From a bacterium (GTDB taxonomy: Archaea; Thermoplasmatota; E2; JACPAO01; JAHFTW01): DNA of 64,000 nucleotides. The notes beneath the pieces were generated by a model. It saw nothing but the letters and a program-made list of their open reading frames with translations, did no database searches and was not told the origin of the DNA. The stretch's first letter is position 1, and every line of letters starts with the position of its first letter. Positions 9,901-48,611 of the stretch are shown in pieces. Both the position numbers and the translations under genes were made by a program. Where the stretch lies: assembly GCA_040390065.1 (NCBI GenBank), contig JAZJZE010000006.1, positions 12,551 to 76,550 of the forward strand. The letters are read 5' to 3'.

Positions 9901-9923
9901 GACCGGGACGTCGATGGTCGGGC

Positions 9924-15270: not shown

Positions 15271-15281
15271 GGCGTGATTCA

Positions 15282-28943: not shown

Positions 28944-29065
28944 GGCGCTTCATCGGCCGAAACCAGCCGAAACTGCCCTCGCTGCGCGTTCCACCGGCCG
29001 CTTGCCACCCTGTTGCCAGCCCAATCGGCAAGTTGCGTAGCATCGGCCAAACTCCTTCGGTGGCG

Positions 29066-29074
29066 TTTTAAATA
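29066..29074 (+). promoter_or_regulatory. Archaeal TATA box (TTTTAAATA) of giant gene 1
   Basis: Matches TTTAWATA-type archaeal TATA boxes. The context ggcgTTTTAAATAccccc is shared with giant gene 3. The inferred start lies about 50 nt upstream of ATG 29147. Confidence 0.6.
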
Positions 29075-29146
29075 CCCCCATCATGGTTCAACCTGCCATT
29101 GTCCCTAGGGAGACCATCCCAAGGGCCAATTGATCGAGGTCCCACG

Positions 29147-32100
29147 ATGCAGCGCACGCAACCCACCGGCCGCCTGAACAGGTTCTCGGCCCTGACCCTG
29201 ACGTCTCTCCTGGTAGTCGCCGGGCTTTTCGTCATCCCCCTGCTGGCCCCGAACGTCAGCGCTGCACCGCCCGTGGTCGCCAAACAATGGTACCAGGACC
29301 TCGACTGCAACGGCCACGTCGACGCGGTCACCATTGTCTTCAACGACCCGCTCGGCACCGCCGTGGCGATGAAGGACGACTCGATCCGTCCCTCCGACTT
29401 CACCCTCACCTACGCCCTCGGCACGGGCACCATCAGCATTCCCGCCAACGGCTTCATGACGACGGCACCCGTCCCCGGCTCCGGCTACCCCGCCGCCGGT
29501 TGCGTTGCCGGTGTCACCGCAGGCCTACCGTCCTCTCCCGGCACGAACCAACCGACGGCGGCCAACGGCTGCCCCGCCGGAGCCGGCATCGACGACTCGT
29601 GCTTCACCCTCCTGTTCCCTGAAGGCCTCAACCCGGACGGCGGCCCCACGAACAACGGCGGCACGGCCTACAACCCGCCAGCCATCACGTACAACCCTGA
29701 CGCTGCGGCACCGGCGCACACCGTCGCGGGCATCAACCTCGCGTCGCTTGGCGCTTGCGCCTCCGGCACCTGCCGGTTCGACGCGACCGCGCCGACGCTG
29801 CGCGCGGCCTACGCCAAGACCGGCGATTCGACCATCACCGTCCTGTTCTCCGAGAACGTCGGCGTCGGCGCCAACGCCGGCACCGTCCCGGCCGCCACGG
29901 ACTTCTGCGTCACCGGCGCCGCGCAACTCGCGGGCAGCCCCCCTGTCTCCGTCCCGTCCGGAAGCCTGCCCAACCGCGGCTTCAAACTGACGCTCACGGC
30001 GCCCATTGCCAACCCCGCGGCCGTCACCGTCGGCGTCGGCAGCGGCACCTGCACCTCCAACATCGTCGACACCGCCGGCAACATCGTCCCCGGCCGCACG
30101 GTCACGACGGGCGCGCCCTTCGTCAACCGCGTCTATGCGAGCGCCGGCGACGCGACCCTCGTGATCGAGTTCAACGGCCCCGTCTGGGACGGCACGACCG
30201 ACATCACGCAGATTCAGAGCACCTTCGAGGTCATCACGGGTTCCGGCTCCGGCCTCACCGGCCTGCAGAGCACGGGCTTCCACACGAGCGGCTCCGACCG
30301 CGTCCAGGTCTCGGCCCAAGGCTCGCCGCCTAACAAGTGCGACATCACCCAGTCGGCGACCGATTGCGGTTCCGCCAACGCGGGCACCCGCATCCGCATC
30401 GCGGCCAACAAGATCTTCGGCTTCAAGGCGACCGGCATTCCTGAACAGCCCACCGGCACTCCGGTCGGCCCGTGCGTCTTCACCAACACCGCGGAGGATT
30501 TCTGCCTCAACGACCCCGTCAATGTCCCGACGCCTCCCGCCGGGGTCTCGGGCTCCATCACGGCGCCGCGCGTCGTGCAGTTCATGACCGAGGACACCAA
30601 CCAGAACGGTTGCCTGGACACCATCAAGGTCACGTGGAACGAGAAGATGGACGACAGCACGATTGGAGGAACGGGCTGGCGCGTCTTCTTCCCCAACGAG
30701 GTCGTGCAGACGCTGCCGACGATGCAGTCGCTTGAGCCGACGACCGGCGCCGGCGCGGCGAACGACCAGTACACGTACCTCAACTTCCTTGCGGGAGAGA
30801 CCTGCACCGGCTCCACCCCGTCGCCCTACGGCAACACGGGCGTCCTGCCCCGGGTGTCCTTCTGCGACGGCATCGATGTCTCGCGCTCCGGCGCCTGCCT
30901 CACATCGACCAAGGACTTTTCGGGCCTGTTGAACACTGGCAGCCAAATGGTCGCCGGCAACAACATGGCTCTCAAGAATTACATCTACCGCGCCCCGACG
31001 GTCGACGGCGCCAAGCCTGTCATCGTGGCGGCTTCGACGCGCGACACGGCCCCCAACGACGGCTACCTCGACGCAATCAAGATCCAGTTCTCCGAGGGCA
31101 TTGATGCAACCACGGTCGACGCGACGCAGTGGACGGCGGTCATCCCCGCCTGGACCGTCGCGGCCCGCTGCCCGCGCGCCGTCGGCTTCACCTACTCGGT
31201 GACGAGCGTCACGACGACCAACTCCAACCCGCAGACCCAGCCCGCGCTGCCGACCCTCGGCACACTCGCAGGCGACGTCATCCTCAACCTCGCGGCCACC
31301 CCGGTCACGAACCCGGTTGGCGACTCGGGCTGCGTCCCCGACGTCACGTACACGGGCGGCGCCAAGTTCGTCAAGGAGTCCAGCGCCACACCGGGCGGCC
31401 TGCTGGCCAACAACGTCCCGGCGGACACGTCGATTGGCGTCTGCGCAGCGGACGGCACGCTCGGCGGCAACGGCAACACGTTCACCAACAACAAGCTGTG
31501 CGAGAACGATGGTGCGCCCCCCGTCATCATCCCGTCCCTGACGTTGGGCACGGTCGGTTCCGACACGGCGTACGTCACGATGAGCGAGCCAGTGTTCGGT
31601 TCGGGCGGCGGTGCGCCTCCGGCAACCTGCGGCACGCCGGCGGCCGGTGGCACATGGGCGGCTAGCCAAGGCTTCCTGCGCGCCTCCGACTTCGACTACC
31701 AGGACAACTCCAACGGTGGCGCCACGGGCATCGCCGGAGTGAGCTCCATCAGCAGCGACTGCCGCAAGTGGCAGATCACCCTCAACGTCCCGAACGGCGG
31801 CGGCCTCAGCAGCTCGGACCAACTCGCCGACTGCATCCAGTCGCGCATTCCCACGTCGTCTGCCCAGGAAGGCATCCGCGATGCGGTCCCCGCAGCGCCT
31901 TGGGTCTCGCCCCCGGCCACACCGACCGGCATCGGCAACGTCGGCTACCCGACGGACGGCGCAACCATTCCCTGCGTCAAGTTCACGACTGGACCCTCGC
32001 CGGTCTCCGGCGCCGTCACGATGGACTCCGACAGGGACGGCTCCCTCGACGCCATCCAAGTCACGTTCACGTCGAGCGTCAAGGACATCGTCACCAATGC

Positions 32101-35100
32101 GGCGACACCGGCCTTCGTGGCCGCCGCCTGTCCGGGTGACGCGGACTGTGGCGCCGCGTTCAAGGCCATCAGCGGATCGCTGGTCTGCCGCGTCGACGTC
32201 CTTCCGACTGCCGCTGGCACCGTCGGCCCCGAGGACCGCTTCTACGCCCACGTGGGCGGCACATGCACGGCCACCGTCGCGGACGGAGACTTCCGTTACT
32301 CCGGAATGCCGGGCACGGCCGCCATCAACAAGAAGGCAGGGACCCCGGTCGTCTGTGTCGGCACGGCGGACGCTGACTGCGGCAATACCCTCACCGGCGT
32401 CACGGGAGGCACTCTGCGCCGGGTGGGTGGCCCAGGCAGCGGTGGCGCTCCCACGGCGACGGACCTGCTTTACAACGACGTCGGCGGCTCAAGCACGACG
32501 AACGTCGAGAACGGCGACTTCCGCCTGTCCGGCGCCGACTCGCGCGCCTGGTCCGTGACCTTCCCGTCCGGCGTCGCCATCGTGAGCGGTGTGAGCAGCG
32601 GCCAGGCCACCGGCCCCGGCACGCACTCCAACACGTTCGGCACCGCCCCCACCGGCGCCGCCTGCCACGACTCGACGATCCTGACGGCCAACGTCGCCAA
32701 CGACAACATCCTCTACATCTGCTTCGAGGAACTGCGCGACGCGGCCGGCAAGCTCATCCCGAACACGGGCGCGGTCCCGACGTTCAGCTACATGGGATCG
32801 ACCCTGCTTGACTCGACGGGCGGCGTGATTGGTGTCTTCAACAACCAGGCGACGGTCGACGGCGCGCAGCCAGTCCTGGTCTCCGCCTTCGTCGGCACGG
32901 TTGCCACCGGCGCGTTGCCGATCCTCGGCGCGCAGCCCAAGACGATCACGGCCACGTTCAGCGAGCCGGTCACCGAGACGGGTGGCAACGCTCTCTTGGT
33001 CTCCGACTTCGCTTACACGAACGGCAACGCAGGTGCGGCCAACACGAACTGCCCCAGCGGCGCCGCGAGCCTTGCATCGCTCGTCTCCGGCGGCACGGCG
33101 CCCACGGGAACGCTCAGCCAGACGCACACGGTCGTGCTCACGACGGACGGGCCCATCACGACCTTCGACGTGGGGCCGAACCCCGTCACGGGCGTCTTCC
33201 TCGCCGGCGGCGGCACATGCCTGACAGTGTTCGACAGCGTCCGCGCCATCTCTGGCCAAGTGGTCGAGAAGGCGGCTCCGCACGCGACCGTCTACACGCC
33301 GGCCTCGGCCCTGCGCCTCACGGACGCGGAAGCTCCGAGCATCGCGAGCGCTGGTTTCATCGACGCCAACGGCGACGGCATCATCGACGCGGTCCAGGTC
33401 AAGTTCAACGAAATGGTCAACGACGCTCCGCTGACGGCCGCCGACTGGTCGGTCAAGATCGGAACGCAAGCGCTGACCATCAAGGCCGTGACGACGGGCC
33501 AAGACGGCACCGAAACCGTCGACGGGCCGGGCGTCTGCCAGAACACGTATTCGCTCGCGACGGGCACGGGCGCCGTGAAGACGGTCTTCGCGCTGTACCC
33601 GGACGAGGTCACGCCCGCAACCGGATTCGGCAAGGGCCTCTTCGACGACACCATCTTCCTCTGCCTCAACCCCGACGCGGCGACCGCCAACGGCGGCACC
33701 AAGACGCTGGGCACGGGAGCCACGGGCTCGCTGCTGTACTCCGCCGCTGCCCCCGCAAGCCGCATCACGGACGTCCAGATGGCGACGAACAAGTTGCAGG
33801 ACCTCGCCGCGGCGGTCACCATCGCAGACCTGGCTCGCCCCGTCATCCTGAACAACTGCCGCGTCGGCTCGGTCCAAGCCGGGGCCACCTGCCCCGCAGA
33901 TGTGTCCGACGTCAGCGTCGAGACGGTTGACCTCAACAGCAACGGCAAGATTGACGCGCTGAAGGTCACGTTCTCGGAGAAGGTCAAGGACAGCACGTTC
34001 ACGGTCGGCCAATGGAACCTCGCCGCACGCGCGCTCACGGGCATGCAGAGCGGCTCCATCGTCCCGACGCCGGCCGGCGAAGTCGACGACGCAACCATCT
34101 ACCTCACCTTCGCCGAGGCCTCGTCGCTCGACAGCGGCACGGGCCGCTACGGCTCGGCCACCATCCCCGACGTCGCGTACTTCGGTTCCGGCTCGATGAA
34201 GGACCTCAACAACAACCTGCTTCGCGGGGTGAGTCCCGGCGCGTGCAACGCACCGACCGTCGGCTGCTCCGACGAACGCGACGGCGCTGCCCCGACCATC
34301 GTATCCATCACGGCTGCGCCCGGCACGAACCTGGTCACCATCCAGTTCAGCGAGAACGTCGGCACGGGTGCGACGGGCACGGGCGCCATCGGCACGGCCG
34401 ACCTGGCGTACGTCAACACTGCCTCGGGCGGTGCCTCCAGCATCAACAGCATCAGCCACGCCGTCGGCAGCTCGACCCTGACGCTCACGCTGAATGCCAA
34501 CCTGAACTCGGCCGATGTGGCAAGCGGCGGAGACAAGATCGTCTTCACACCGGGCAACATCAAGGAGTTCAACTGCGGCGCCCACACGCCCCCGTACGCT
34601 TACCCCATCGTCGGCCCTGCGGCGCCCAACTCGTGCTACCGCGAAATCGCGATCACGCAGTCCAGCGTCGAACTCGCAGGTGTCAAGAGCCACGCGCCGC
34701 CGACCGCCCCGGTCCTCACGAAGGACCCAACCGGTGACACGGCAACGGGCGCCAAGTTCACCTGGACGGTCCCGACGACATCCGGTGGCGCGACCCTGGC
34801 ATCCTACGAGTTCTTCGTGTGCCAGGCCCCGACGCTCCCCGCGTCGCACGCGGGCTGTGTTGCTCCGACCGGCGGCCAACCCGCCGCCTCGGCCACGTCG
34901 CTCACGGTGACCGGCCTTACGACGGGCAGCACGTACAGCTTCGGCATCCGTGCCATCGACTCGGACGGCCTGGCTGGCGCCGACTCCAACGGCATCAACG
35001 GTTATGTCCCGGCCGCGCCGGACACCGATCCGCCCTGCGCCATCACCGACCTCTCGGTCGGCACGACGACCAGCAACTCGGTCACCCTGACATTCCAGTC

Positions 35101-36511
35101 GCCGTTCGAGGACTGCGCCGCCCACGCGGGCAAGGTCAAGAGCTACAAGGTTGCCGTCTCGACGGGCACCGCGATCGGTTCGCAGGCGCAGTTCGATGCA
35201 GCCGTCGCGACGACGGGCCTGTCGTTCAGCCCCGCCACGCCGCAAGCGAACCCGACGCTTCAGGGGCTGACGGTCAGCAACCTCCAGCCCGGCCAGCAGT
35301 ACCTCATCAGCGTCGAGGCCGTCGACGACGCCACCCCGACGGCCAACGTCGGTCCCCTCGGCGCCGCCGTCCCCGCAACGCCGTCGGCTCCTGGTGGGAC
35401 GCCCGCCAAGATCGTCGACCTCGCCGTCACGGCCGGGTCGGCCTTCGGCAGCGTCGACCTTTCATGGTCAGCGCCGCCCAAGGACAGCCTCCTCGGAACG
35501 GGCACCGTGACGGGCTACGATGTCCGCATCACGACCTCGCCCGGTGGCCTCGGTGTCCCGGTGAGCAGCAGCGACCTGAGCTTCGGCTTCGGAACGCCGG
35601 GAGCACCGGGCCAACCGCAGAGCGCCACCATCTCGGGTCTGTCCGCCGACACGACGTACTACATCACCGTCGCCGGCAAGAACCTCGGCACGACCGGAAC
35701 GCCGTCGACCCCCGCGTCGATCACGATCGGTTCCGACCCCAACGCGCTCACCGTCGCGGCACTGACCGCGTTCGAGACCAGCTTCGCGAACACCCTCAAG
35801 GTCACGAACTCGGGCGGCACGAACACGCTGACCTGGGACACGCCGCCGGGCGACGCGACGCACGCGGCCGAGGGCATCCAGATCTGGAAGTCCACGAACG
35901 GCGGCCCGTACACGCTGGTCAAGACCATCTCGTCGCTCAGCCCCGAGTACGGCCTGAAGTCGATGACGGACCCCGGCTCGTCCTCGGACAAGTACCGCGG
36001 GACGGTCTACTACGGCAACACGGCGGCCAGCGGGTTTGCCGCCAACGGCGACCCCAACAGCATCCCGGGTTTCTCGAGCCTCCACGAGGCCAGCGCATCG
36101 TCCAACTTCCTGGGTCTCGACCCCATGATCTGGTGGATCATCATCGCGGCCGTCGGCCTGCTGTTGCTGCTGCTCATCATCCTCCTCATCGTCCGCAGCC
36201 GCCGCAACAAGGGCGGCGACTTCGCCGAGGAAGACGACGACGGAGGCTTTGCCGCGGTCGACGAGGGTGCCGAGGCGGCGCCTGCCATGGAAGCGCCCGA
36301 TGCCCCGCCGGCGGATGCAGCCGCGGATGCGGCCGCAGCTTCGGCCGCCGTAGCCGCCGCCGCAGAGACGCCGCCGCCCGCGCAACCACAGGCCTCGGCC
36401 GAAAAGCACTACCTCACGTGCCCCAAGTGCACGACCGAGTTCACGGCCATGGGTGTCAAGCCGCTTGCCATCCAATGCCCGAACTGCGGTGTCCGCGGCA
36501 CGCTCCGTTAG
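29147..36511 (+). CDS. Giant cell-surface protein 1 (about 2454 aa): Ig-like/FN3 modules, TM anchor, cytoplasmic zinc ribbon
   Basis: GAGGT lies 6 nt upstream of the ATG. Signal peptide MQRTQPTGRLNRFSALTLTSLLVVAGLFVIPLLAPNVSA. At least six DxDxDG...FSE modules and several FN3-like domains. TM helix MIWWIIIAAVGLLLLLLIILLIV followed by RSRRNK. Acidic/Ala-rich linker. Tail CPKC-x19-CPNC. Confidence 0.9.
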   Translation: MQRTQPTGRLNRFSALTLTSLLVVAGLFVIPLLAPNVSAAPPVVAKQWYQDLDCNGHVDAVTIVFNDPLGTAVAMKDDSIRPSDFTLTYALGTGTISIPANGFMTTAPVPGSGYPAAGCVAGVTAGLPSSPGTNQPTAANGCPAGAGIDDSCFTLLFPEGLNPDGGPTNNGGTAYNPPAITYNPDAAAPAHTVAGINLASLGACASGTCRFDATAPTLRAAYAKTGDSTITVLFSENVGVGANAGTVPAATDFCVTGAAQLAGSPPVSVPSGSLPNRGFKLTLTAPIANPAAVTVGVGSGTCTSNIVDTAGNIVPGRTVTTGAPFVNRVYASAGDATLVIEFNGPVWDGTTDITQIQSTFEVITGSGSGLTGLQSTGFHTSGSDRVQVSAQGSPPNKCDITQSATDCGSANAGTRIRIAANKIFGFKATGIPEQPTGTPVGPCVFTNTAEDFCLNDPVNVPTPPAGVSGSITAPRVVQFMTEDTNQNGCLDTIKVTWNEKMDDSTIGGTGWRVFFPNEVVQTLPTMQSLEPTTGAGAANDQYTYLNFLAGETCTGSTPSPYGNTGVLPRVSFCDGIDVSRSGACLTSTKDFSGLLNTGSQMVAGNNMALKNYIYRAPTVDGAKPVIVAASTRDTAPNDGYLDAIKIQFSEGIDATTVDATQWTAVIPAWTVAARCPRAVGFTYSVTSVTTTNSNPQTQPALPTLGTLAGDVILNLAATPVTNPVGDSGCVPDVTYTGGAKFVKESSATPGGLLANNVPADTSIGVCAADGTLGGNGNTFTNNKLCENDGAPPVIIPSLTLGTVGSDTAYVTMSEPVFGSGGGAPPATCGTPAAGGTWAASQGFLRASDFDYQDNSNGGATGIAGVSSISSDCRKWQITLNVPNGGGLSSSDQLADCIQSRIPTSSAQEGIRDAVPAAPWVSPPATPTGIGNVGYPTDGATIPCVKFTTGPSPVSGAVTMDSDRDGSLDAIQVTFTSSVKDIVTNAATPAFVAAACPGDADCGAAFKAISGSLVCRVDVLPTAAGTVGPEDRFYAHVGGTCTATVADGDFRYSGMPGTAAINKKAGTPVVCVGTADADCGNTLTGVTGGTLRRVGGPGSGGAPTATDLLYNDVGGSSTTNVENGDFRLSGADSRAWSVTFPSGVAIVSGVSSGQATGPGTHSNTFGTAPTGAACHDSTILTANVANDNILYICFEELRDAAGKLIPNTGAVPTFSYMGSTLLDSTGGVIGVFNNQATVDGAQPVLVSAFVGTVATGALPILGAQPKTITATFSEPVTETGGNALLVSDFAYTNGNAGAANTNCPSGAASLASLVSGGTAPTGTLSQTHTVVLTTDGPITTFDVGPNPVTGVFLAGGGTCLTVFDSVRAISGQVVEKAAPHATVYTPASALRLTDAEAPSIASAGFIDANGDGIIDAVQVKFNEMVNDAPLTAADWSVKIGTQALTIKAVTTGQDGTETVDGPGVCQNTYSLATGTGAVKTVFALYPDEVTPATGFGKGLFDDTIFLCLNPDAATANGGTKTLGTGATGSLLYSAAAPASRITDVQMATNKLQDLAAAVTIADLARPVILNNCRVGSVQAGATCPADVSDVSVETVDLNSNGKIDALKVTFSEKVKDSTFTVGQWNLAARALTGMQSGSIVPTPAGEVDDATIYLTFAEASSLDSGTGRYGSATIPDVAYFGSGSMKDLNNNLLRGVSPGACNAPTVGCSDERDGAAPTIVSITAAPGTNLVTIQFSENVGTGATGTGAIGTADLAYVNTASGGASSINSISHAVGSSTLTLTLNANLNSADVASGGDKIVFTPGNIKEFNCGAHTPPYAYPIVGPAAPNSCYREIAITQSSVELAGVKSHAPPTAPVLTKDPTGDTATGAKFTWTVPTTSGGATLASYEFFVCQAPTLPASHAGCVAPTGGQPAASATSLTVTGLTTGSTYSFGIRAIDSDGLAGADSNGINGYVPAAPDTDPPCAITDLSVGTTTSNSVTLTFQSPFEDCAAHAGKVKSYKVAVSTGTAIGSQAQFDAAVATTGLSFSPATPQANPTLQGLTVSNLQPGQQYLISVEAVDDATPTANVGPLGAAVPATPSAPGGTPAKIVDLAVTAGSAFGSVDLSWSAPPKDSLLGTGTVTGYDVRITTSPGGLGVPVSSSDLSFGFGTPGAPGQPQSATISGLSADTTYYITVAGKNLGTTGTPSTPASITIGSDPNALTVAALTAFETSFANTLKVTNSGGTNTLTWDTPPGDATHAAEGIQIWKSTNGGPYTLVKTISSLSPEYGLKSMTDPGSSSDKYRGTVYYGNTAASGFAANGDPNSIPGFSSLHEASASSNFLGLDPMIWWIIIAAVGLLLLLLIILLIVRSRRNKGGDFAEEDDDGGFAAVDEGAEAAPAMEAPDAPPADAAADAAAASAAVAAAAETPPPAQPQASAEKHYLTCPKCTTEFTAMGVKPLAIQCPNCGVRGTLR

Positions 36512-36521
36512 GCCGGTCCAG

Positions 36522-36543
36522 CCTTTTCTCCCCTTTTCCCCCC
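36522..36543 (+). terminator. Oligo-T/pyrimidine-rich archaeal terminator candidate
   Basis: ccTTTTctccccTTTTcccccc lies 11 nt after the stop. A similar motif follows giant gene 2. Confidence 0.5.
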
Positions 36544-36672
36544 GTGCCGTCACCGCCAACCTACGGCGTCCGCGGATTTGCCTGAAATACCGTGCAGGAC
36601 CGGTTTGGCCCACGCGCATCTTGCGAGGCCGCGGACTGGGAGCACATTTTGCCGATTTTGGCGTACCGTTTT

Positions 36673-36725
36673 GGTCAATCGGCGCACTCCAGATGGATGA
36701 CGAACTGGAAGGCATCTGCGCAATG
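36673..36725 (+). promoter_or_regulatory. Conserved upstream element, copy B
   Basis: ggtcaatcggcgcactccagatggatgacgaactggaaggcatctgcgcaatg. Near-identical to the copy at 50483-50538 and clearly related to 42205-42260. Contains the dyad CAGATG-N17-CATCTG. Ends about 40 nt upstream of the TATA box. Confidence 0.6.
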
Positions 36726-36765
36726 GAGCCCGCGGTTCGGTCGGGTCCGAATCTGTTGCTTGTTG

Positions 36766-36774
36766 TTTTAAATA
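36766..36774 (+). promoter_or_regulatory. Archaeal TATA box (TTTTAAATA) of giant gene 2
   Basis: Consensus-like TATA box. ATG 36851 lies about 55 nt downstream of the inferred start and is preceded by GAGG at a 7-nt spacing. Confidence 0.6.
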
Positions 36775-36850
36775 CGTCCAGGGATGGGACGGACCAGCAA
36801 CGCTGATTGCGTGCCGCGAGGGCCGCGTCGGTGTGCCTTGAGGCAACAAC

Positions 36851-39800
36851 ATGGTGGCTGGTTCCCCGAAGCCAAAGTACCGCGCCCCGGCGCGCATCCT
36901 GATGGTCGCCGCCGTGCTGCTCCTTGGCAGCCTGATGCCCGCCATCGGCCCCGCCGCAGCGCAGTCCGGCAGCACGACGCTCATGACCGGCCCGTTCTTC
37001 GACGACGCCGGATCGCAGACGTTCCCGCACTGTCCGACGACGCCGACGAACCCCGCCCTCAAGGCGCAGAACGACGACGGCATCTGGCAGGTCCGCCAAG
37101 TCACTGTCATCTCCTCCACGGACGTCAACCAAGTCACCTTCGATTACGTCGTCGGCACCGGCACGGGTGTGGGCGCCAACCAGCGCATCGAATGGGGCAC
37201 GTCCACCGCAGGCAGCAAGGCCGCCGGCTGGCCGAGCATCTCCGTCTCCAACGGCGCAGCGTCCGGCAACCTGAACCGCCTCACGTTTTCGGGCGGCACA
37301 CTGTCGCACCTCAGCCTCGCCGGCCAAGTCTTCACGATCGCGTTCCGCGTCATCGGAAGCCCCGCGGCCGACGTCTACACGCAGCTGGGCGCCGGCAAGG
37401 TCAGCGTCACCGCAGGCAGCAAGGACGTCGTCGGCACCGGCACGGCCTTCACGCAGTTCTTCGCCGTCGGCAACACCTTCAAGGTGAGCGGCGACGCGCA
37501 CCAGTACAAGGTCGCAAGCATCCAGGACGCGACCCACCTCAAGCTCACGGACAAGCTGGTCGGCTCCTCCATCACGCCGACGACGGCGCTCAACTACACC
37601 AAGATTGACCCGGCCACGACGACCACGCCCGCGACGTTCCCCGTCAAGGTGGACAACGACGCCAGCATCTGCATCGTCATCGACATGACGCCGCCGCACG
37701 TCATCTCGGCCTACACGCGCGACACGAACTTCAACGGTCTCTTGGACGAGATGGTCCTCACCTTCGACGAGGAGATGGACCCGACGACGCTGAACCCCGC
37801 CTCGTTCGCCGTCAACGCGAGCTCCAGCGGCGAACCCATCCCCTACTCCGTGCTCCCGTCCAACGGCAAGAGCCTGGTCAAAGGACTGGGCAGCGACGAC
37901 GGCCATTTCTCCGACCCGGCATGCACCACGGCCTCACCGCCCGCCAATGCCTGCGTCAACCTCGAGAAGACCCTGAAGTTGTCGCTCGCGGAGGGTTACA
38001 AGTACGACACGGGCGTCTTGCCTGAGGTCACGTACCCGAAGGCCGGCGAGTCGGCGACGTTCTCGGACCTTGCGCACAACCCTCTCGCCAACATCACGAA
38101 CTCCGACCTCACCGAAGTCGACGGCGCCAAGCCCGTCCTGGTGAGCGTCTTCGACTTCGAGGGCGCCACCTCGATGATCGCCACGTTCAGCGAACCCGTC
38201 ACGGGCTCGGGCCCCAAGTCGGGCGCCCAGGCCGGCGACGTCGACAACTGCATCGGTGGTCTCGGCTGCGTCCGGACGACCGACTTCTTCTACTACGATC
38301 GCTGCGCCGGAAAACTCAGCAGCGACAGCCAGTGCAACCCGGCCACGGGCCTCAGCCACATGTCGGGCACGAATTGCATCACCGCGCAATCCGGTCTTTC
38401 CCCTGAGATCGGCGTCTCCATGCACACGCCTGGCCCAACGAACGGCAACACGGTGACGCTGCCCGTCATCGCTGTCGCCTCGGACCCTGGCTGCGATGTG
38501 GCCGGCAAGGGGCAAGGCGTCAAGGGCTACGTCGGCAAGGGCGACGCTCAGCAGGCGCTCGGTGATGTCATCGCGCTCAACACAATGGCCTCCGAACCCG
38601 TGAGTTCCATCACTTGCCCCGGCATCGACTTCCTGCCCTGCGGCGCCCTCGTACGCGACGCCACCGGCCTGCGCGGCGTCCCCACGGCTCCGTGCAGCAT
38701 CGCCAACGTGTGCAACGCCGGCGCCGGCCCCGGCGGCGGCGCCAACGGCATCAAGGGCGCAACCTCGTCGCTGCCCCTCGTTGTCGACGCGGTCGTCAAC
38801 ATCGACACCTTCCAAGTCACGCTCAACTTCAACGGTCCCGTGAGCGACGCCTCCGGCGACGACAAGCCCCTTACGCTGCAGGACCTCACCGTCATCTCGG
38901 CCGACGGTCCCAGCAACTCGCAGGGGCCGGGCGGCATCACGCAGATCCTGCACCGGGCCGGCGCCTCGCGCGCCATCCTGACGCTGGACAAGAAGGTCCG
39001 GCCGACGGACGTCGACGACACGCCGACCAAGATCGGCATCAAGTGCAATGCCATCAAGGGCACGCGGCAGGCGGCGTTCGTGCCGTGCGGCGATCCTGAC
39101 GGCACGGGCGGATCGGGAGTGGCCCTCATCGACAACGTTCTGCCCGCCATCCTCAAGGCCGAGACGGTCGACATGGACCGCGACGGCCAGGTGGACGGTT
39201 TGTTCCTGGAGTTCAACGAGCCGGTCGACGACACGACGTTCTGTCAGCTTGGCAACGCGCCGCCCCCGGCCGAATGCTACCCCGGTTCCGGCGGCGTCGG
39301 CCTGCAGGTGGGCAAGTACCACCACCCCGCGGACGCGACGGGTCCGGAGACGAAGTACGTCTTCGACACGGACGCCAGCCCCGGAGGCGTTGGCGCGCCC
39401 ATCAGCGTCGACCAAGGCAACGGCCAGCCCAACGACCGCTTTGGCATCATCAAGTTCGTGAACCCGTTCAAGCAGCCCATCGGCCTCGGCACTGCCGACC
39501 CGGCCGACACGGCCATCACGACGACCGCCGCAGGCCTGTTCTCCGACCTGTCCCATCCGGGGCCGCCGACGCAGCCGCCGTACGCCCAGGCCAAGCAGAT
39601 GGCACAGATCTGCCCCACCGGATGCCTCGGCTCGGTCAAGCTCCTGGACGGCGCGCCGCCGGTGCTGCTCTCGGCCTTGACGGTCGACACGCGGCTCACG
39701 GTTCCTGGAGCCCCCACGGTCAACGACCTGGAAGGGGACGGCTACCTCGACGGATACCGCATGACGTTCAGCGAACCCGTGCTCGACAAGTCGTTCTGCC

Positions 39801-42046
39801 ACAACAACCTGCAGACCGGCCCCGTCTACCTGTGCAACTCGGTGGAGTGGGCTGTCGAGGGCCACAAGGTCATCGGCATGCGCACCCGCGACCCGAACGT
39901 CGTCGACCTCACCGGCCTCACGAACGTCGACAACGAGGTCACGCTGCTCTTTGCCCCGGGCGACCACCCGGATACCGGCGAGCGGCCCAAGCTCACGTAC
40001 TTCGGCCCGTCGCAGCCCACGTACGGCTTCAAGGATCTGCAAGGCGTCCAGATGCTGCCCCTGCAGCCGATCGACGGCTTCGAGGAGGACGATGCAGCAC
40101 CGGTCATCACGTTGGTCGAGGGCTTCCTCGGCCGCAACAACGTGACCATCCGCTTCAGCGAGCCCGTCGACAACGGCCAGAAAGGCGCCCTCGGGCGCTC
40201 CAGCCTGCTGTACTTCAACATCGACCACTTGCCCGACGGCGTCTCCGGATTGTCCTCGCAGGACGCAGTCGTGCACTTCGCCGCCACGGACAACCTGATT
40301 GCGCACCTGAACTGCCCCGTCAACGCGCCCAAGACGGTGCCGGACTGCGGCAACATCGGCTTGCAGGTGCACGACATCCAGAACGACACCATCTCGGCCG
40401 AGCTGAACTCCATCTGGGAAACGTCCCCCAGCGTCCCGTCGCCGCATGTCGTTTCCAAGAAGTCCGTGTCGGTGAAGAACCACCACCTCGGCAACGCCAT
40501 CGACATCTTCCGCCCCGCCAACGTCACGCAGTTCCAGGTCGTGAAGCAGCTGACGTCCGCCAACTCGGTGACCCTGAGCTGGAAGGCGCCCGGCAACGAC
40601 GGCAACGGCTTCGGCTCGGTGCGCGGCTACCGCATCAAGGTGTCGACGCAGAAGATCGCCCCCGGCGACTTCAACGTCTCGTCGGCGCCGGGCAGCTACG
40701 GCCTTGGCGACTCGAACCCGAACGCCACCCTCAACGCCGACGGCAGCGCCAATATCGTGCGGCTGCGCGGCGACCAGGTCTACGCCATCCTCAGCCCCGA
40801 CGCGGGCGGACTGGCCGGTCCTGGCGAGTACCAGCAGGCGACCATCATCGGCCTGCAGGCCCAGACCACGTACCACTTCGCCGTCGAGGCGTTCGATGCC
40901 GCGACGCTGCCGCCGTGCTACACGACGGATGCAGGTCACACGACGTTTGCCGCCCCAGTGGCCGCTTGCCCCTCGACCAACACGAAGCGCGTCGACTTCC
41001 GCCACTTCTCCGGCATGCGACCGGATGACGTCTCGATTGCCGCGACGCAGTACGACGTCTCCACGGCGACCGGCATCGACCTGACGCCGCCGGTCCCGAC
41101 ACCGGTCATCGCAAGCACGACGCACCCGGCGAACCGCCCCGACCCGAAGATGACCGCCATCTTCAGCTGGACGAACGCGACGGACGGCGAGTCGACGGTG
41201 AACTACCACTACGCGCTCAACACGGACCCGCAGTACAAGGTCCTCGTCACGGACTTGGTCTACACGGGCGCTGCCAACCTGCCGAGCGTCTCGATCCCCA
41301 TCCCGAGCCGCGGCACGTGGTACTTCCACGTCGCGGCCTTCAGCGGCGGCGGCTCGACGGCGACGGCGCACTACACCATCATCGTGGACCGCCCGACCAT
41401 CGACCCCGCGGACATCCGCGAACGCAACGACCTCGTGCTCACGAACGCGACGCGCGACGGCGCGACCAACTCGGTGACGTGGCACCTGCCGGACCAGGCG
41501 CTCCTGCCCCCCGGCGGCCAACTCGAGGGCGTCGACATCTACGCCATCGAAGGATGCGGCTCCTCGACGGGCTGCACGGTCGTCAACGCCCACTCGATCA
41601 CCGGCACGTACGACCAACTGCAGTCGGGCACGTGGACGGACGACCGCGCGACGGCCGGAAGCGTCACGGGCTACCGCGTCGAGATGGTCTTCGCCAACGC
41701 GCAGACGCAGACGCCGACCGGCGGGAGCCACAGCGTCCAGGGTTTCGCCGCCATCCAGGAACAACCCGGCCACGACAACTCCGCGCTCTGGTGGCTCCTG
41801 GCCGCTGTCCTACTGGTTCTCGTGGCGGCCGGCATCGCCTTCCTGGTGATCCGCAGCAAGCGCGCCAACGCTGCAGCCTTCGAGGAGATCCCCTCGGAAT
41901 CGACCGCGGCGGGCATGGACCCCGTGACCGGCCTGCCGGCACATGACGTGCGCTGCCCCTCGTGCCAGACGGCGTTCCAGGCGGTCGGCAACCTGCCGCT
42001 GCAGATCACCTGCCCCAACTGCGGTGTTTCGGGCCTGCTGCAGTAG
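36851..42046 (+). CDS. Giant cell-surface protein 2 (1731 aa), paralog of proteins 1 and 3
   Basis: Signal peptide MVAGSPKPKYRAPARILMVAAVLLLGSLMPAIGPAAAQS. DxDxDG...FSE/FNE modules and FN3-like domains. A YHYALNTDP...TWYFHVAAFSGGGST module is shared with protein 3. TM helix LWWLLAAVLLVLVAAGIAFLVI. Tail CPSC-x19-CPNC. Confidence 0.9.
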   Translation: MVAGSPKPKYRAPARILMVAAVLLLGSLMPAIGPAAAQSGSTTLMTGPFFDDAGSQTFPHCPTTPTNPALKAQNDDGIWQVRQVTVISSTDVNQVTFDYVVGTGTGVGANQRIEWGTSTAGSKAAGWPSISVSNGAASGNLNRLTFSGGTLSHLSLAGQVFTIAFRVIGSPAADVYTQLGAGKVSVTAGSKDVVGTGTAFTQFFAVGNTFKVSGDAHQYKVASIQDATHLKLTDKLVGSSITPTTALNYTKIDPATTTTPATFPVKVDNDASICIVIDMTPPHVISAYTRDTNFNGLLDEMVLTFDEEMDPTTLNPASFAVNASSSGEPIPYSVLPSNGKSLVKGLGSDDGHFSDPACTTASPPANACVNLEKTLKLSLAEGYKYDTGVLPEVTYPKAGESATFSDLAHNPLANITNSDLTEVDGAKPVLVSVFDFEGATSMIATFSEPVTGSGPKSGAQAGDVDNCIGGLGCVRTTDFFYYDRCAGKLSSDSQCNPATGLSHMSGTNCITAQSGLSPEIGVSMHTPGPTNGNTVTLPVIAVASDPGCDVAGKGQGVKGYVGKGDAQQALGDVIALNTMASEPVSSITCPGIDFLPCGALVRDATGLRGVPTAPCSIANVCNAGAGPGGGANGIKGATSSLPLVVDAVVNIDTFQVTLNFNGPVSDASGDDKPLTLQDLTVISADGPSNSQGPGGITQILHRAGASRAILTLDKKVRPTDVDDTPTKIGIKCNAIKGTRQAAFVPCGDPDGTGGSGVALIDNVLPAILKAETVDMDRDGQVDGLFLEFNEPVDDTTFCQLGNAPPPAECYPGSGGVGLQVGKYHHPADATGPETKYVFDTDASPGGVGAPISVDQGNGQPNDRFGIIKFVNPFKQPIGLGTADPADTAITTTAAGLFSDLSHPGPPTQPPYAQAKQMAQICPTGCLGSVKLLDGAPPVLLSALTVDTRLTVPGAPTVNDLEGDGYLDGYRMTFSEPVLDKSFCHNNLQTGPVYLCNSVEWAVEGHKVIGMRTRDPNVVDLTGLTNVDNEVTLLFAPGDHPDTGERPKLTYFGPSQPTYGFKDLQGVQMLPLQPIDGFEEDDAAPVITLVEGFLGRNNVTIRFSEPVDNGQKGALGRSSLLYFNIDHLPDGVSGLSSQDAVVHFAATDNLIAHLNCPVNAPKTVPDCGNIGLQVHDIQNDTISAELNSIWETSPSVPSPHVVSKKSVSVKNHHLGNAIDIFRPANVTQFQVVKQLTSANSVTLSWKAPGNDGNGFGSVRGYRIKVSTQKIAPGDFNVSSAPGSYGLGDSNPNATLNADGSANIVRLRGDQVYAILSPDAGGLAGPGEYQQATIIGLQAQTTYHFAVEAFDAATLPPCYTTDAGHTTFAAPVAACPSTNTKRVDFRHFSGMRPDDVSIAATQYDVSTATGIDLTPPVPTPVIASTTHPANRPDPKMTAIFSWTNATDGESTVNYHYALNTDPQYKVLVTDLVYTGAANLPSVSIPIPSRGTWYFHVAAFSGGGSTATAHYTIIVDRPTIDPADIRERNDLVLTNATRDGATNSVTWHLPDQALLPPGGQLEGVDIYAIEGCGSSTGCTVVNAHSITGTYDQLQSGTWTDDRATAGSVTGYRVEMVFANAQTQTPTGGSHSVQGFAAIQEQPGHDNSALWWLLAAVLLVLVAAGIAFLVIRSKRANAAAFEEIPSESTAAGMDPVTGLPAHDVRCPSCQTAFQAVGNLPLQITCPNCGVSGLLQ

Positions 42047-42057
42047 GCCACAACCCC

Positions 42058-42088
42058 CATTTTCCCTCCTTTTCCCTCGTCCTTTCCT
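42058..42088 (+). terminator. Oligo-T/pyrimidine-rich archaeal terminator candidate
   Basis: caTTTTccctccTTTTccctcgtccTTTcc begins 12 nt after the stop. Resembles the motif after giant gene 1. Confidence 0.5.
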
Positions 42089-42204
42089 GTCCGTCCGGGC
42101 GCCGACGCCTTGCCCGCCATCCCTGGGAGAGTGGGTCAGCTCCGGGGGGCTATGGCGGCCGGGCCGGCGCCAGACCGGGGCCAACCAGGGGGTCGCCCAG
42201 GAGG

Positions 42205-42260
42205 GGCAATCTGCGGGGAATCCAGCTGGATTGCGAACGGGAAGGCATCTGCGAAATGCC
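42205..42260 (+). promoter_or_regulatory. Conserved upstream element, copy C (more diverged)
   Basis: ggcaatctgcggggaatccagctggattgcgaacgggaaggcatctgcgaaatgcc. Homology to copy B continues downstream (cggttcggt..ccgaatctgtt) as far as the TATA box. Confidence 0.55.
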
Positions 42261-42292
42261 CGTTCGGTTGACTCCGAATCTGTTCCTTGGCG

Positions 42293-42301
42293 TTTTTAAT
42301 A
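42293..42301 (+). promoter_or_regulatory. Archaeal TATA box (TTTTTAATA) of giant gene 3
   Basis: TATA-like box followed by the same CCCCCC run as in gene 1. The inferred start lies about 50 nt upstream of ATG 42372. Confidence 0.55.
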
Positions 42302-42371
42302 CCCCCCAGATTGGAGAACCATGGGACCGGTGCGCCTTTTGGTGACGCCGGCCTCAAGACGAGGTCAAATC

Positions 42372-48300: not shown

Positions 48301-48611
48301 GCCTCGTGGACCAGACACCGGGAGTCGTCCCGCCGTGGATCTGGATTCTGGCCGGCATCGCGCTGGCGCTCATCCTGTCGGGTCTCGTGATCTTCGTGAT
48401 CCTGAAGCGCCGCTCCAAGCTCGAAGCCACCGGCGGCACCGCCTACAGCTGGGAGTCGGCCAACCCCGAACTCCTCGGCATCGACGAGGCCACCGGCCTG
48501 CCCGTGCACGAAGTGCGCTGCCCGTCCTGCAACAACCCGTTCCAGGCCGTCGGCGCTCTCCCCTTGCCGGTCACGTGCCCGACTTGCGGCACGACCGGGG
48601 AACTCGAATAG
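42372..48611 (+). CDS. Giant cell-surface protein 3 (about 2079 aa), paralog of proteins 1 and 2
   Basis: The ORF opens at 42321, but GAGGT lies 6 nt before ATG 42372. That start gives the signal peptide MASKSSRMGQLLGPLVLAFLMVFTVLATVTPQAQA. Same module types as its paralogs. TM helix PWIWILAGIALALILSGLVIFVIL. Tail CPSC-x19-CPTC. Confidence 0.9.
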   Translation: MASKSSRMGQLLGPLVLAFLMVFTVLATVTPQAQAAVTSRPEGKVLITTEPDFNLPNYDQMGPTGSIFYPWQAQPPGPTTQPPQVVNNPLATYPKNPATVYVNTKHQDPDGKCPGCFQRTVRVAFNDMAVTRIDFVAPTRDAFSTPVCSNTPVDAWAAAMDPCKDHGMLRWRPEYSYATRPGWAVSVNAENAKKSQCDDPIKCAMGDDTPPARIMSFTSDVPNPVPSLLLGTTPGDARLANALDIVLAFSIDGTPSGDDGMQTFPQTPADEFHVQINVTPSGNPNIPFETTCPAWNSATGVNGNPQSPFTCVYTNPPFKGPAPVNFPAEFIADPRFSSVDCGVPGGLCTGTPGLVIRVDNTPPEVHETSNGDARVAAGNGGPIPCVCSFFSQDVDHNGHIDRFIVSFTEPLNPNTFDFRQFSIQTKGRDRPYTITNAFFEQQRAGPGPEEGLCLQGLTTPPAQTPPLTPIRITYPGSTCRVDFLVAEMPFMDSGDTPNLKYPCDLCPATATDRAGNPLKKMTGTTILAVDRAPPILYSTYALDAAHNGGVPYAQTELQVFFSENVMGSGCNDPQAGPPATCGTRPVQFNDLCYMDNVSPGGAGDVIGKPTPDLPSGGRVITSITTTINPSDTLNFATGPVITAGQIYYIGTVTSGTTTGGGATRLIDTSKNFAAIGVTVGMIIDFSGGCSAPIGACTGCFSLDTPYDTTSAVCQPAPKCRYFDLVDHTPAPGASSVGTAGDGWKMRVLTMLNPTDTNNRLMYGSADVHPFNGDMITVNVAPHGLTRGCFAVMLEQGILGTDPCNADVRDLHDNGAWYPTGLPRVAYPRPPALAHVTFPMVKSATVDSSNPSCPQSTPGKGVGPGDLTDTVACHYWLKLQFNGPVRGPNGPASCDTTTGSGKTAKPFFACNLDIKAATGKELGQGPQGFFGPAPPSTTGSSSTATQAPYYLMGDNDQAVLQMDYAARPIDVSLSGARVKLVCNTIFATPGWVSKYSLDPSTTGVNPLVGAIPCDDPDQYYGPQEDFGGVVQRPDIDIVDLTPPRILEARTVDADHNGYLDGVQLTFSEPIDDGSYCGNDPSAQAAPNFCPDTESGAGTGYITFSRWTSQEMIRAMTDVHEEECFASSGTLDGTDTGTPYTDGFKWDTGTLSNDNVGTILHVRTLTQQDGSYITRPQDCNEYFRGVRMDGLPNPPAPNGDGATRPLQRWPTDSLLHITSPVPGLFSDLATHPFHDNSDIFSPPNSPPVANPNQLPRICQFESRAMTGQAGTYNQVQSHPSAACDTTQITVDSVRVTDGAPPVLWKAQTYDTPVLDVNGIPDTKNFWNNLFGDGTIDGYRLTFSERVNDGSFVAADWHVAGHDTLEFTNPTGCSKPGKTTYVNHEVTIDTVIPGKALMRTRDTTLNPFDPLQNDQISQGQSDDQFILLFTPAKTIFTKPDGCKELHAAYDTETKPELTASGPNGHLHMADRAGLLKPNPICPSNTANCCPGGPSINNCMVDFDTFAVQEEDRAGPQIVRIEGFAGTNHIDVRFSEPVDDGSHSGLVRDDFQYFDKNAKDVAGFSSTEPVESTAGGRNSTIHLGQLLTVSDQTSDKIAARTCRIYEVAPSVSPSQRQCVPSYPRSLVPENDTAAPGALSDFRIVAELTNANSLTASWTAPADDGTAGKPVSGYTCLVGTRTILGNETNDNRISFSYDPPVSSLAGPGLTQTVRIAGLDSEAKYYIACYAKDDLGNLSPLSEVASGTTTRDVTPPTGTITIKSPSHPAGVPTAGNTISFTWNAITKAQEPESTVVYHYALNTNPNYVVLATDGATQDTKVTQLAPGDGTYYFHVAAMSGGGSTLTAHYQVVVGLPPLTVASIESANDLVKTEPFRQEQELNGQTVVLNNVTWTLPPDTTPPGLDISGVEIWREDHGIFTKLNLADTDPKICSHPLSGSYDDLKSGHCWDTSLGATADSKYKVTMVFATPPHTQGEPVKGYAGLVDQTPGVVPPWIWILAGIALALILSGLVIFVILKRRSKLEATGGTAYSWESANPELLGIDEATGLPVHEVRCPSCNNPFQAVGALPLPVTCPTCGTTGELE

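Follow-up and report, generated by a model that had tools for sequence, protein, structure and literature searches.

Three tandem genes for giant, membrane-anchored Ig/FN3-type proteins with conserved Cys4 tails in a genome of Thermoplasmatota kin

Introduction

Giant surface proteins with immunoglobulin (Ig)-like domains are a known theme in archaea. PySLP, the S-layer protein of Pyrobaculum arsenaticum, is a 292-kDa polypeptide with 19 Ig-like domains and a C-terminal transmembrane (TM) helix (bioRxiv 10.64898/2026.08.21.746120). Here, we describe three consecutive genes for proteins of this general build, p1, p2 and p3, at positions 29147-48611 of a stretch of 64,000 nucleotides (nt; G+C 67%) from contig JAZJZE010000006.1; this whole stretch is termed the window, and searches and counts labelled as such cover all 64 kb. 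The trio shares with PySLP its very large size, tandem Ig-like beta-sandwiches in a long stalk, a single C-terminal TM helix and a conserved, probably cytoplasmic end. PySLP is, however, a single protein from a different phylum (Thermoproteota) with a short, highly basic tail ending in Lys, whereas the trio comprises three paralog types that carry a linker of 30-71 residues and a predicted folded Cys4 zinc ribbon. The likeness drawn here is one of architecture, and an S-layer-like lattice is no more than a possibility for the trio.

The S-layer glycoproteins of haloarchaea, such as the PGF-CTERM/archaeosortase-processed csg of Haloferax volcanii, resemble the trio in Sec export, arrays of Ig-like domains, an acidic isoelectric point (4.4-4.8 for p1-p3) and a C-terminal membrane anchor. 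The trio differs from them in the depletion of N-glycosylation sequons in type 1 and in its putative cytoplasmic zinc ribbon, which has no counterpart there. An NCBIfam scan yielded no match above cut-off for models of PGF-CTERM or other sorting signals; GG_III-CTERM reached 18.3 bits on the TM helix of p1 compared with the 22 bits required. Eukaryotic Ig/FN3 receptors (Robo, neogenin, PTP-delta, contactins) exhibit the same succession of N-terminal Ig domains, membrane-proximal fibronectin type III (FN3) domains, single-pass TM segment and cytoplasmic tail, with identities of 10-16% that speak for a shared fold and not for demonstrable homology. Unlike their signalling or kinase/phosphatase domains, the tail of the trio appears to be a minimal zinc ribbon. 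Giant Ca2+-dependent bacterial adhesins and SbsA-type Big_5 proteins have Big_5 modules (as in p2), Asp/Asn-rich loops and a similar size in common with the trio, which is distinguished from them by its N-terminal signal peptide, type-I TM anchor, archaeal host and the lack of RTX repeats and of a type I secretion signal; indeed, neither HemolysinCabind nor related models matched p1-p3 at E <= 0.1.

Elements of this design that are already known are thus the membership in the fn3 and Big_5 families and the resemblance to TM-anchored archaeal S-layer proteins and eukaryotic receptors. New, within the libraries searched, is the folded, near-invariant zinc ribbon at the presumed cytoplasmic end of such giants, which is located at the extreme C-terminus behind TM helix and linker and is the most conserved part of the protein. 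The same applies to the three type-specific versions of this tail, which are conserved together and travel in a fixed gene order. By this design, the cell coat may be linked to a component of the cell interior. Knowledge of the envelopes of uncultured Thermoplasmatota is scant, and many of their cultured relatives lack a wall; a literature search for this architecture in Thermoplasmatota retrieved nothing specific.

Gene trio and promoters

The three genes are arranged head-to-tail, and all three open reading frames (ORFs) are intact:

29147..36511, + strand: gene 1 (type 1), encoding p1 of 2454 amino acids (aa)
36851..42046, + strand: gene 2 (type 2), encoding p2 of 1731 aa
42372..48611, + strand: gene 3 (type 3), encoding p3 of 2079 aa

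An earlier interpretation made without database searches (the sequence-only reading) had listed three consecutive same-strand ORFs of these lengths, and this is confirmed. At NCBI, the proteins are found as MES2154680-82 under the names 'fibronectin type III domain-containing', 'Ig-like domain-containing' and 'hypothetical' in a metagenome-assembled genome (MAG) labelled '[bacterium]'. The NCBI start of p3 is 7 codons downstream of 42372; the upstream start is supported because GAGGT is present at 42361-42365. In the called frame, the G+C content at third codon positions (GC3) of p1-p3 is 0.89-0.92, the top value among the large genes of the window, and the effective codon number (Nc) of 30.3-30.7 is undercut by only one small secreted protein among 27 window genes. 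The codon use of the trio thus resembles that expected for highly expressed genes and, together with promoter quality, suggests that the proteins are abundant.

The promoters are archaeal in form. The motif GTTTTWAATAC is present exactly three times in the 64 kb (29065, 36765 and 42292; chance expectation 0.00), and each copy stops 70-76 nt 5' of the ATG of one giant gene, such that this consensus TATA motif is confined to the trio within the window. This agrees with the sequence-only reading, which had assigned a TATA box to each gene. The following elements were noted:

29065..29075, + strand: TATA/BRE-like box of gene 1 (GTTTTAAATAC), one of the three window matches
36765..36775, + strand: TATA/BRE-like box of gene 2 (GTTTTAAATAC), by motif count
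42292..42302, + strand: TATA/BRE-like box of gene 3 (GTTTTTAATAC), by motif count
29136..29140, + strand: GAGGT ribosome-binding site of gene 1, 6 nt 5' of the ATG, by direct reading
36523..36545, + strand: T/C-rich tract 3' of the gene 1 stop, by direct reading, similar to archaeal terminators
42058..42088, + strand: T/C-rich tract 3' of the gene 2 stop, by direct reading, terminator-like
36675..36725, + strand: copy 1 of a repeated, palindrome-containing element of about 55 nt, located 40-90 nt 5' of the TATA box of gene 2
42208..42258, + strand: copy 2 of this element, located 5' of the TATA box of gene 3; a perfect palindrome, AATCCAGCTGGATT, is part of it
50486-50536: copy 3 of this element, 47 nt before the ATG (50583) of an acyl-CoA dehydrogenase gene

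Direct reading also confirms GAGG(T) at a distance of 6-7 nt from the ATG in all three genes. Judging from the position of the TATA boxes, the leaders would be about 50 nt long, and the T/C-rich tracts after genes 1 and 2 probably act as terminators. The element of about 55 nt combines the palindrome with a GGCAT...ATGCC inverted repeat; an exact 19-mer occurs three times in the window compared with 0.03 expected occurrences, and the element was not found in related loci. It could be a common transcription-factor site or a small genome-specific repeat. Promoter and 5' leader of gene 2 are nearly identical in DNA between the window (36740-36850) and two related loci, here numbered L001 (9880-9990) and L005 (380-500), even though the p2 proteins of these genomes are merely 57-67% identical. 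The conserved stretch holds a CGTCC-AGGGATG-GGACG hairpin right after the TATA box, and its conservation suggests a regulatory or leader structure upstream of p2.

Three ortholog types in fixed order

Homologs of the trio are rare. A word-indexed search retrieved seven in 5.8 billion sequences, while scans with one narrow peptide pattern led to four loci in 185,579 species genomes and to one short locus in 241 million JGI metagenome records. No relatives were present on the viral contigs scanned. As had been suggested as a check by the sequence-only reading, we inspected the related loci for synteny, and indeed both the gene order and the ending composed of TM helix and zinc ribbon recur. The window, L001, L002 and L003 all show the order 1-2-3, and L005 shows 2-3. 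The three types are recognized by their tails, with the signatures HY[LV]TCP[KR]C..[EP]F[TS]A.G[VI]KPL[AS]IQCP.CGVRGTL[RK] for type 1, TGLP.HDV[RK]CPSC.T.FQA.G.LPLQITCP.CGV.G.LQ for type 2 and YSWES..P....GIDEATGLPVHEV[RK]CPSCNNPFQA.G.LPLPVTCP.C.TTG.L[ED] for type 3.

Within the trio, p2 aligns with p3 at 33% identity across a C-terminal region of about 840 residues, which includes the YHYALN...FHVAA module already recognized as common to both proteins in the sequence-only reading. p1 aligns weakly with p2 and p3 (E 1e-12 to 1e-13) and has the TM helix and the CPxC...CPxCG tail in common with them. Among orthologs, ectodomain identity drops to 29-38% in the farthest of these genomes, and in distant orthologs conservation is lower in the N-terminal parts than next to the membrane. 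In all nine ortholog comparisons the final bin, located inside the zinc ribbon, is the best conserved: the last 31 residues of p2 are 83-93% identical as compared with 36-66% for the whole protein, and the tail bin of types 1 and 3 is 55-89% identical. From the divergence of the ectodomains and the conservation of the tails it therefore follows that the triplication is old, as had been surmised from the trio itself, that the copies are not interchangeable and that the strongest purifying selection acts on the presumed cytoplasmic tail. By these comparisons, p1-p3 represent three old ortholog types whose order is fixed, and not the loose copies that the word 'copies' in the sequence-only reading had implied. 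Its statement that the system is maintained as three copies applies to one sub-clade; elsewhere, relatives carry one (L012), two (L009), three or, probably, four members (L010, with at least three).

The relatives from species genomes are entitled Thermoplasmata archaeon, Thermoplasmatota archaeon and 'uncultured Halobacteriales archaeon', and the one labelled 'Halobacteriales' is 67% identical and syntenic. An assignment to a particular lineage, such as the high-GC order RBG-16-68-12 (Ca. Angelarchaeales), was considered and not adopted. The fourth match from species genomes is a 'Gemmatimonadaceae' bin with a type-1-like tail fragment on contig L006. This contig consists of a part with 75% GC that contains the tail fragment (1-914) and a part with 55% GC (1163-10187) that encodes bacterial proteins, namely a GT9 heptosyltransferase, LepA, Mfd and a PpiC-type rotamase. 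Bacterial family members were considered on the basis of this contig and rejected, since it is chimeric by GC and by gene content.

The label '[bacterium]', which is all that the deposited MAG offers, the frequency of long spurious ORFs in high-GC genomes and the relative on a 'Gemmatimonadaceae' contig could be taken to mean that there is no functional system at all and that the trio represents decaying or spurious long ORFs or mis-assigned bacterial or viral DNA. We consider this extremely improbable. It is largely refuted by GC3 in the called frame together with the strong codon bias, by the existence of full-length orthologs (30-66% identical) in which both the order of the domains and the tails are kept, by the chimeric nature of the L006 contig with its drop from 75% GC at the tail fragment to 55% GC at the LepA/Mfd-type genes, by the failure to find viral relatives and by the archaeal-type promoter boxes. 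Furthermore, the adjacent gene for tryptophanyl-tRNA synthetase (TrpRS) best matches the NCBIfam PRK12285 models, which we take to represent the archaeal/eukaryote-type enzyme. Decay to pseudogenes, a possibility raised in the sequence-only reading, is likewise contradicted by intact ORFs, codon bias and full-length orthologs. A chromosomal, archaeal origin is backed by synteny with the genes for TrpRS and for transglutaminase-like, FtsX-like and acyl-CoA dehydrogenase proteins. In sum of these sequence comparisons, the three giants are non-redundant, type-I membrane-anchored proteins of Thermoplasmata/Thermoplasmatota kin.

The C-terminal zinc ribbon

The C-termini are organized as follows:

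p1: TM helix aa 2327-2349 (nt 36125-36193), Ala/Asp/Glu-rich linker of 71 aa, zinc ribbon aa 2421-2454 (nt 36407-36508)
p2: TM helix aa 1645-1667 (nt 41783-41851), linker of 30 aa, zinc ribbon aa 1698-1731 (nt 41942-42043)
p3: TM helix aa 1988-2011 (nt 48333-48404), linker of 34 aa, zinc ribbon aa 2046-2079 (nt 48507-48608)

The chain continues for at least 100 residues past the TM helix in p1 and for at least 60 in p2 and p3, and in each case a Cys4 ribbon of 34 residues forms the extreme C-terminus, with R, Q and E as the respective last residues. The C-terminus is predicted to be cytoplasmic because Arg/Lys directly follow the TM helix in p1-p3. Zinc binding of a tail located in the cytoplasm would be in line with the four invariant Cys and with these positive-inside residues.

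With a profile of the 332 C-terminal residues as query, 369 matches at E <= 1e-10 were obtained among 1.84 billion representatives, and the best 150 of them were examined. The same tail ending is present in 104 of these 150, i.e., in at least 104 clusters at the level of 50% identity. The consensus is H-x-[VLI]-x-C-P-x-C-x3-F-x-A-x-G-x-[KLR]-P-[LI]-x3-C-P-x-C-G-x2-G-x-L-x-COOH. The CxxC knuckles are 15 residues apart in 104 of 104 cases, the chain ends exactly 7 residues past the last Cys in 96 of 104, and G11, P14 and G26 do not vary across the 103 tails tabulated. A strongly hydrophobic segment is located 28-143 residues upstream of the ribbon in all 107 tail-bearing proteins. We define the family by such a hydrophobic TM segment, a Cys4 motif that follows it at a distance of 28-143 residues with a knuckle spacing of 15, and a chain end 7-8 residues past the last Cys, and p1, p2 and p3 all belong to it. 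Two tail classes stand out, one with a K-P-L core and final R/K/N (50 clusters, type 1 included), the other (30 clusters, types 2 and 3 included) with 'G[LMV]P.H' in front of the ribbon. In every locus with at least two visible members, the K-P-L-core (type-1-like) member comes first. The attribute 'lineage-specific' in the sequence-only reading is therefore too narrow insofar as the tail family extends far beyond one trio; the relatives with names are nonetheless Thermoplasmata/Thermoplasmatota MAGs. Word-indexed searches were less productive: the one with a 32-sequence C-terminal alignment gave no match, probably because low-complexity linker words swamped the candidates, and the one with 40-residue tails gave 456 candidates, none of them at E <= 1e-3 against 5.8e9 sequences.

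Curated zinc-ribbon models from Pfam and NCBIfam did not exceed their cut-offs on the tails of the three whole proteins. Zn_ribbon_8/FmdB models (PF09723, TIGR02605) failed with 16-19 bits against cut-offs of 34.4 and 31.3, the MJ0042-type finger (TIGR02098) failed with 13.5 bits on p2 against 20.9, and its Pfam relatives Zn_ribbon_4 and Zn_ribbon_5 reached 19-25 bits against 29-30. MJ0042-type fingers are, moreover, usually N-terminal, in contrast to the extreme C-terminal position seen here. All of the 42 tails scanned match many zinc-ribbon models weakly, and the best score of the fully tabulated tail was 24.8 bits compared with 30.3 required. When the tail profile was run against the Protein Data Bank (PDB), C2H2 linkers, eS27, anti-TRAP and LysW were retrieved; homology was rejected for all of these, as the matches span 7-17 residues each and remain at the level of the knuckle. 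By the measure of these models, the tail is a distinct, uncurated zinc-ribbon subfamily. Neither the tail nor the whole architecture is covered by a curated family in Pfam, NCBIfam or PDB sequence searches, and the statement in the sequence-only reading that no named family accounts for the full architecture thus holds.

A described domain that comes close to the tails is the C-terminal CPxCG zinc ribbon of CdpC from Haloferax volcanii, which binds FtsZ1 directly (bioRxiv 10.64898/2026.07.16.738847). Both are small C4 ribbons with CPxC and CPxCG knuckles, and that of CdpC makes a protein contact at the cytoplasmic face of the membrane. CdpC differs from the trio in that it is cytoplasmic, attaches via an amphipathic helix and lacks an ectodomain; the two are likened here by description and not by sequence. 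The tail offers a concrete handle on how an archaeal surface coat may join the cell interior, and HxVxCPxC-x15-CPxCGxxGxLx at a C-terminus with a TM helix before it is a compact signature for searches in metagenomes.

Ectodomains

N-terminal to the TM helix, the proteins are laid out as follows:

p1: signal peptide aa 1-39; about ten Big_5-like Ig modules, several with DxDxNGxxD loops; three fn3 domains; membrane-proximal FN3-like domain
p2: signal peptide aa 1-37; N-terminal head at about aa 40-275; about five Big_5-like modules; fn3 aa 1227-1350; 'YHYALN..FHVAA' Y_Y_Y/FN3-like module (nt 41204-41353); membrane-proximal FN3-like domain
p3: signal peptide aa 1-35; Cys-rich head; about five Big_5-like modules; fn3 aa 1644-1739; YHYALN module (nt 47742-47879); membrane-proximal FN3-like domain

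In outline, this layout had been proposed in the sequence-only reading, and it is now backed by Pfam, by a module hidden Markov model (HMM) and by structure prediction. The Sec-type signal peptide of each protein, with an AxA-type site, was read from the sequence. Pfam fn3 (PF00041, gathering cut-off 25 bits) matches all three proteins, with 78.9 bits in three stretches of p1, 25.6 bits in p2 and 26.3 bits in p3, and also five of six type-2 orthologs. Big_5 (PF13205, cut-off 23.6 bits) is surpassed in p2 (26.2-31 bits) and matched by five of six orthologs; p1 stays below with 17.3 bits. The bulk of each protein is without a Pfam match. A repeated Ig module starts with P-x-[IV] and contains [FW]-[ST]-E-P-[VIM]-D; a Ca2+-binding-type loop, D-x-[DN]-x-[DN]-G-x-[ILV]-D, is frequently embedded in it. 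As one copy overlaps the Pfam Big_5 match, the repeated module is tied to the Big_5 Ig fold. The counts of about 10, 5 and 5 modules in p1, p2 and p3 stem from an HMM built from the modules with the FSE motif, which is partly circular, yet also recovers modules outside its seeds; the modules of p1 and p3 and the remaining Ig modules are linked to Big_5 solely via this in-house HMM.

The C-terminal part of p2 (aa 1400-1731, 332 residues) was modelled with AlphaFold2 from 9 sequences, with a mean predicted local distance difference test score (pLDDT) of 79. The model contains beta-sandwiches at model residues 15-113 and 130-238 and the TM helix at 245-271, followed by a disordered linker and a four-stranded zinc ribbon at 297-331. 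The best Foldseek matches in the PDB are tandem FN3 ectodomains (Robo, neuroglian, PTP-delta, titin, contactins), with E-values to 2e-5 and identities of 10-16%. A counterpart of the membrane-proximal beta-hairpin of PySLP was not identified in this model. The first sandwich is the YHYALN...FHVAA module of p2 and p3, which has a Pfam Y_Y_Y match in one ortholog and is also repeated 7-21-fold in many unrelated proteins without the tail. By this distribution, it is a widespread beta-sandwich domain and no hallmark of the tail family. For p2 aa 30-1229, the model (6 sequences) has a pLDDT of 47 and is predicted to be nearly all beta; a phmmer search with p2 against PDB sequences gave no match.

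The ectodomains contain even numbers of Cys, 46 in p1, 28 in p2 and 50 in p3. Together with the signal peptide, the positive-inside residues and the Ig/FN3 folds, this makes a surface location well supported. N-X-S/T sequons are strikingly scarce in p1, where 1 is observed and 22 are expected. For type 1 in the window and in orthologs (L001, L003, L009), the observed and expected numbers are 1/22, 3/27, 1/19, 2/12 and 3/16, which amounts to a depletion of about 5-20-fold that is kept across orthologs, while type 2 is at expectation. This pattern points to active N-glycosylation in these organisms, from which type 1 has to be kept free. Independently of the giants, the secreted protein encoded directly upstream of gene 1 (26424-28943) has zero sequons in 839 aa.

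Ectodomains of this kind would also befit specialised adhesins or receptors for contact with substrates or cells, which would not form a structural coat; variable heads would bind particles, polymers or other cells, and the zinc-ribbon tail would relay or regulate binding by outside-in or inside-out signalling, as in eukaryotic Ig/FN3 adhesion receptors. This explanation draws on the structural matches to ectodomains of Robo, neuroglian, PTP-delta, contactins and titin, on the lower conservation of N-terminal as compared with membrane-proximal parts in distant orthologs, on loops of the Ca-binding type, which are typical of giant bacterial adhesins, and on the position of the locus within an island of secreted proteins with thrombospondin type-3 (TSP_3), Kelch and lamin-tail domains. 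TSP_3 proteins have been discussed as adhesion factors in Poseidoniales (PMC6461757). However, a constitutive structural role would account no less well for the strong codon bias, for the consensus promoters on all three genes and for the persistence of all three types across deeply diverged genomes, and domain scans detected no lectin, carbohydrate-binding module (CBM) or vWA domain in the heads. Hence, adhesins or receptors are to us a possible, though rather doubtful, explanation. If the giants were ordinary adhesins with a passive tail, the present work would provide a useful family annotation and no more.

Working model

The function of the trio is entirely something that we infer, and the 'envelope or adhesion system' of the sequence-only reading had been a surmise of the same kind. 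We lean, with reservations, towards abundant, type-I anchored envelope or adhesion rods, either S-layer-like or forming a surface coat, with tails that dock on a cytoplasmic partner or on each other. Within this general model, the present evidence does not tell 'main coat' from 'adhesin'. Each gene would be driven by its own strong archaeal promoter, and the product would be exported via its Sec signal peptide. The ectodomain would form an all-beta rod of Big_5-like Ig and FN3-like domains that is tens of nm long (40-55 nm when about 4 nm per sandwich and roughly 10-14 domains are assumed) and bears a variable N-terminal head at its tip. The DxDxNGxxD loops present in many Ig modules probably bind Ca2+, and the paired cysteines probably form disulfide bonds, both of which would stiffen the rods. 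A single TM helix would hold the protein, followed by a flexible linker of 30-70 residues and the 34-residue Cys4 zinc ribbon in the cytoplasm. Together, the rods might constitute the main proteinaceous cell coat, be it an S-layer-like or glycocalyx-like canopy, or adhesive fibres, while the zinc-ribbon tails would serve as cytoplasmic docking modules that bind a conserved partner or each other and thereby fix the position, stoichiometry or dynamics of the coat from the inside. The two precedents mentioned above, PySLP and the contact between the CdpC ribbon and FtsZ1, support the idea of a coat with docking tails.

Several points weigh against it. The proposed abundance is derived from codon bias and promoter quality only. 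A heterotrimeric building block of fixed composition cannot hold for the whole family, as relatives carry between 1 and 4 of these genes. The formation of a lattice is a proposal, made by analogy for proteins known here from their genes. Given the low confidence of the model for the 1200-residue ectodomain of p2, the number and packing of the Ig modules are based on sequence motifs. The depletion of sequons in type 1 is unlike the well-studied, heavily glycosylated archaeal S-layer proteins. Finally, the conserved neighbours of the trio may reflect general synteny, and the cytoplasmic partner itself is putative.

Gene neighbourhood

Three further genes flank the trio:

23698..25386, + strand: secreted transglutaminase-core protein, 45% identical to the gene in the same position of the distant locus L009
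26424..28943, + strand: TM-anchored secreted protein with TSP_3 Ca-binding repeats, immediately upstream of gene 1 and also upstream in L001 and L009
48952..50349, + strand: FtsX-like (MacB/LolC-type) permease, downstream of the giants

The common order among related loci is lamin-tail-domain protein, TrpRS, transglutaminase-core protein, TSP_3 protein, giants, (RimK-like and AstE/AspA-like proteins), FtsX-like permease and acyl-CoA dehydrogenase, with the genes in brackets present in only some genomes. In each of the six loci with visible downstream DNA, the giants are followed by the FtsX-like gene, with 37-64% identity in L002, L003, L005 and L009 and a Pfam FtsX match in L011. Since housekeeping genes are syntenic as well, this gene order is no proof of functional coupling.

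The permease has a bearing on the idea that the giants serve as 'legs' or tracks at the surface for a machine that transmits force, comparable to the Gli proteins of Mycoplasma mobile or the Agl-Glt complex of Myxococcus, with tails that would couple to a cytoplasmic motor, to the cytoskeleton or to the FtsX-like permease as a mechanotransmission device. Gli123, Gli349 and Gli521 of the wall-less bacterium M. mobile are three giant TM-anchored surface proteins encoded in tandem, and cultured relatives of the present lineage are often wall-less. The GltJ zinc finger, in turn, is of the MJ0042 type. The GltJ zinc-finger domain is described as a cytoplasmic switch in the Myxococcus Agl-Glt focal-adhesion complex (PMC11135422). 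The tandem arrangement of giant TM-anchored proteins, the near-invariant, presumably cytoplasmic tails and the FtsX-like gene in all six loci would suit such a machine. On the other hand, no motor ATPase is encoded in the cluster, no similarity to Gli/Glt proteins or MJ0042-type fingers surpassed the threshold, and the synteny of the FtsX-like gene is confounded by general synteny. The likeness to the Gli proteins is an organisational analogy without detected similarity in sequence or domains and without a motor gene near the trio. A force-transmitting machine, proposed by analogy only, would thus come as a considerable surprise.

In several relatives, a RimK-like ATP-grasp ligase and an AstE/AspA-like deacylase are encoded between the giants and the FtsX-like gene:

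L002, 14231-16272: RimK-like/AstE-like region
L009, 21492-23494: RimK-like/AstE-like region
L011, 5310-7585: RimK-like/AstE-like region
L012, 9420-10589: AstE/AspA-like gene only

The window contains neither of the two genes. With the free C-terminus of fixed length in mind, C-terminal modification of the tails could be a lead, and plain synteny is equally possible. Taken further, the tails might be the cytoplasmic half of a transmembrane linkage, an archaeal counterpart of the integrin or cell adhesion molecule type. Giant surface rods would then be positioned, moved or remodelled from inside the cell by tails that bind a conserved FtsZ/CetZ/actin-type cytoskeletal or division protein, similar to the CdpC zinc ribbon and FtsZ1. 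Each tail type would be directed to a site of its own, and the free C-terminus might be reversibly modified by the RimK-like ligase and the AstE-like deacylase of several relatives. We judge it unlikely that all four parts of this reading, i.e., linkage, cytoskeletal partner, three addresses and C-terminal modification, apply together.

Upstream of the genes listed above, at 9924-17624 and 20710-21930, the window contains a run of genes for secreted proteins, namely one that combines Kelch and TSP_3 domains, three others with TSP_3 repeats and one with a lamin-tail domain. The giants are therefore part of a larger surface-protein island. One of the upstream TSP_3 proteins reaches 345.7 bits on the NCBIfam model for the MtsC cell-cohesion protein, which has a cut-off of 350. 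A secreted, Pro-rich protein of 279 aa without a family match, encoded at 17661-18500, exhibits the strongest codon bias of the window (GC3 at synonymous sites, GC3s, 0.925; Nc 29.5), which suggests that it is very highly expressed. Farther downstream, at 56294-58723, an ORF of 809 aa is extremely rich in Glu, Arg and Ala, coiled-coil-like and without a Pfam match; with a first-position GC of 0.85, it may be either real or driven by composition.

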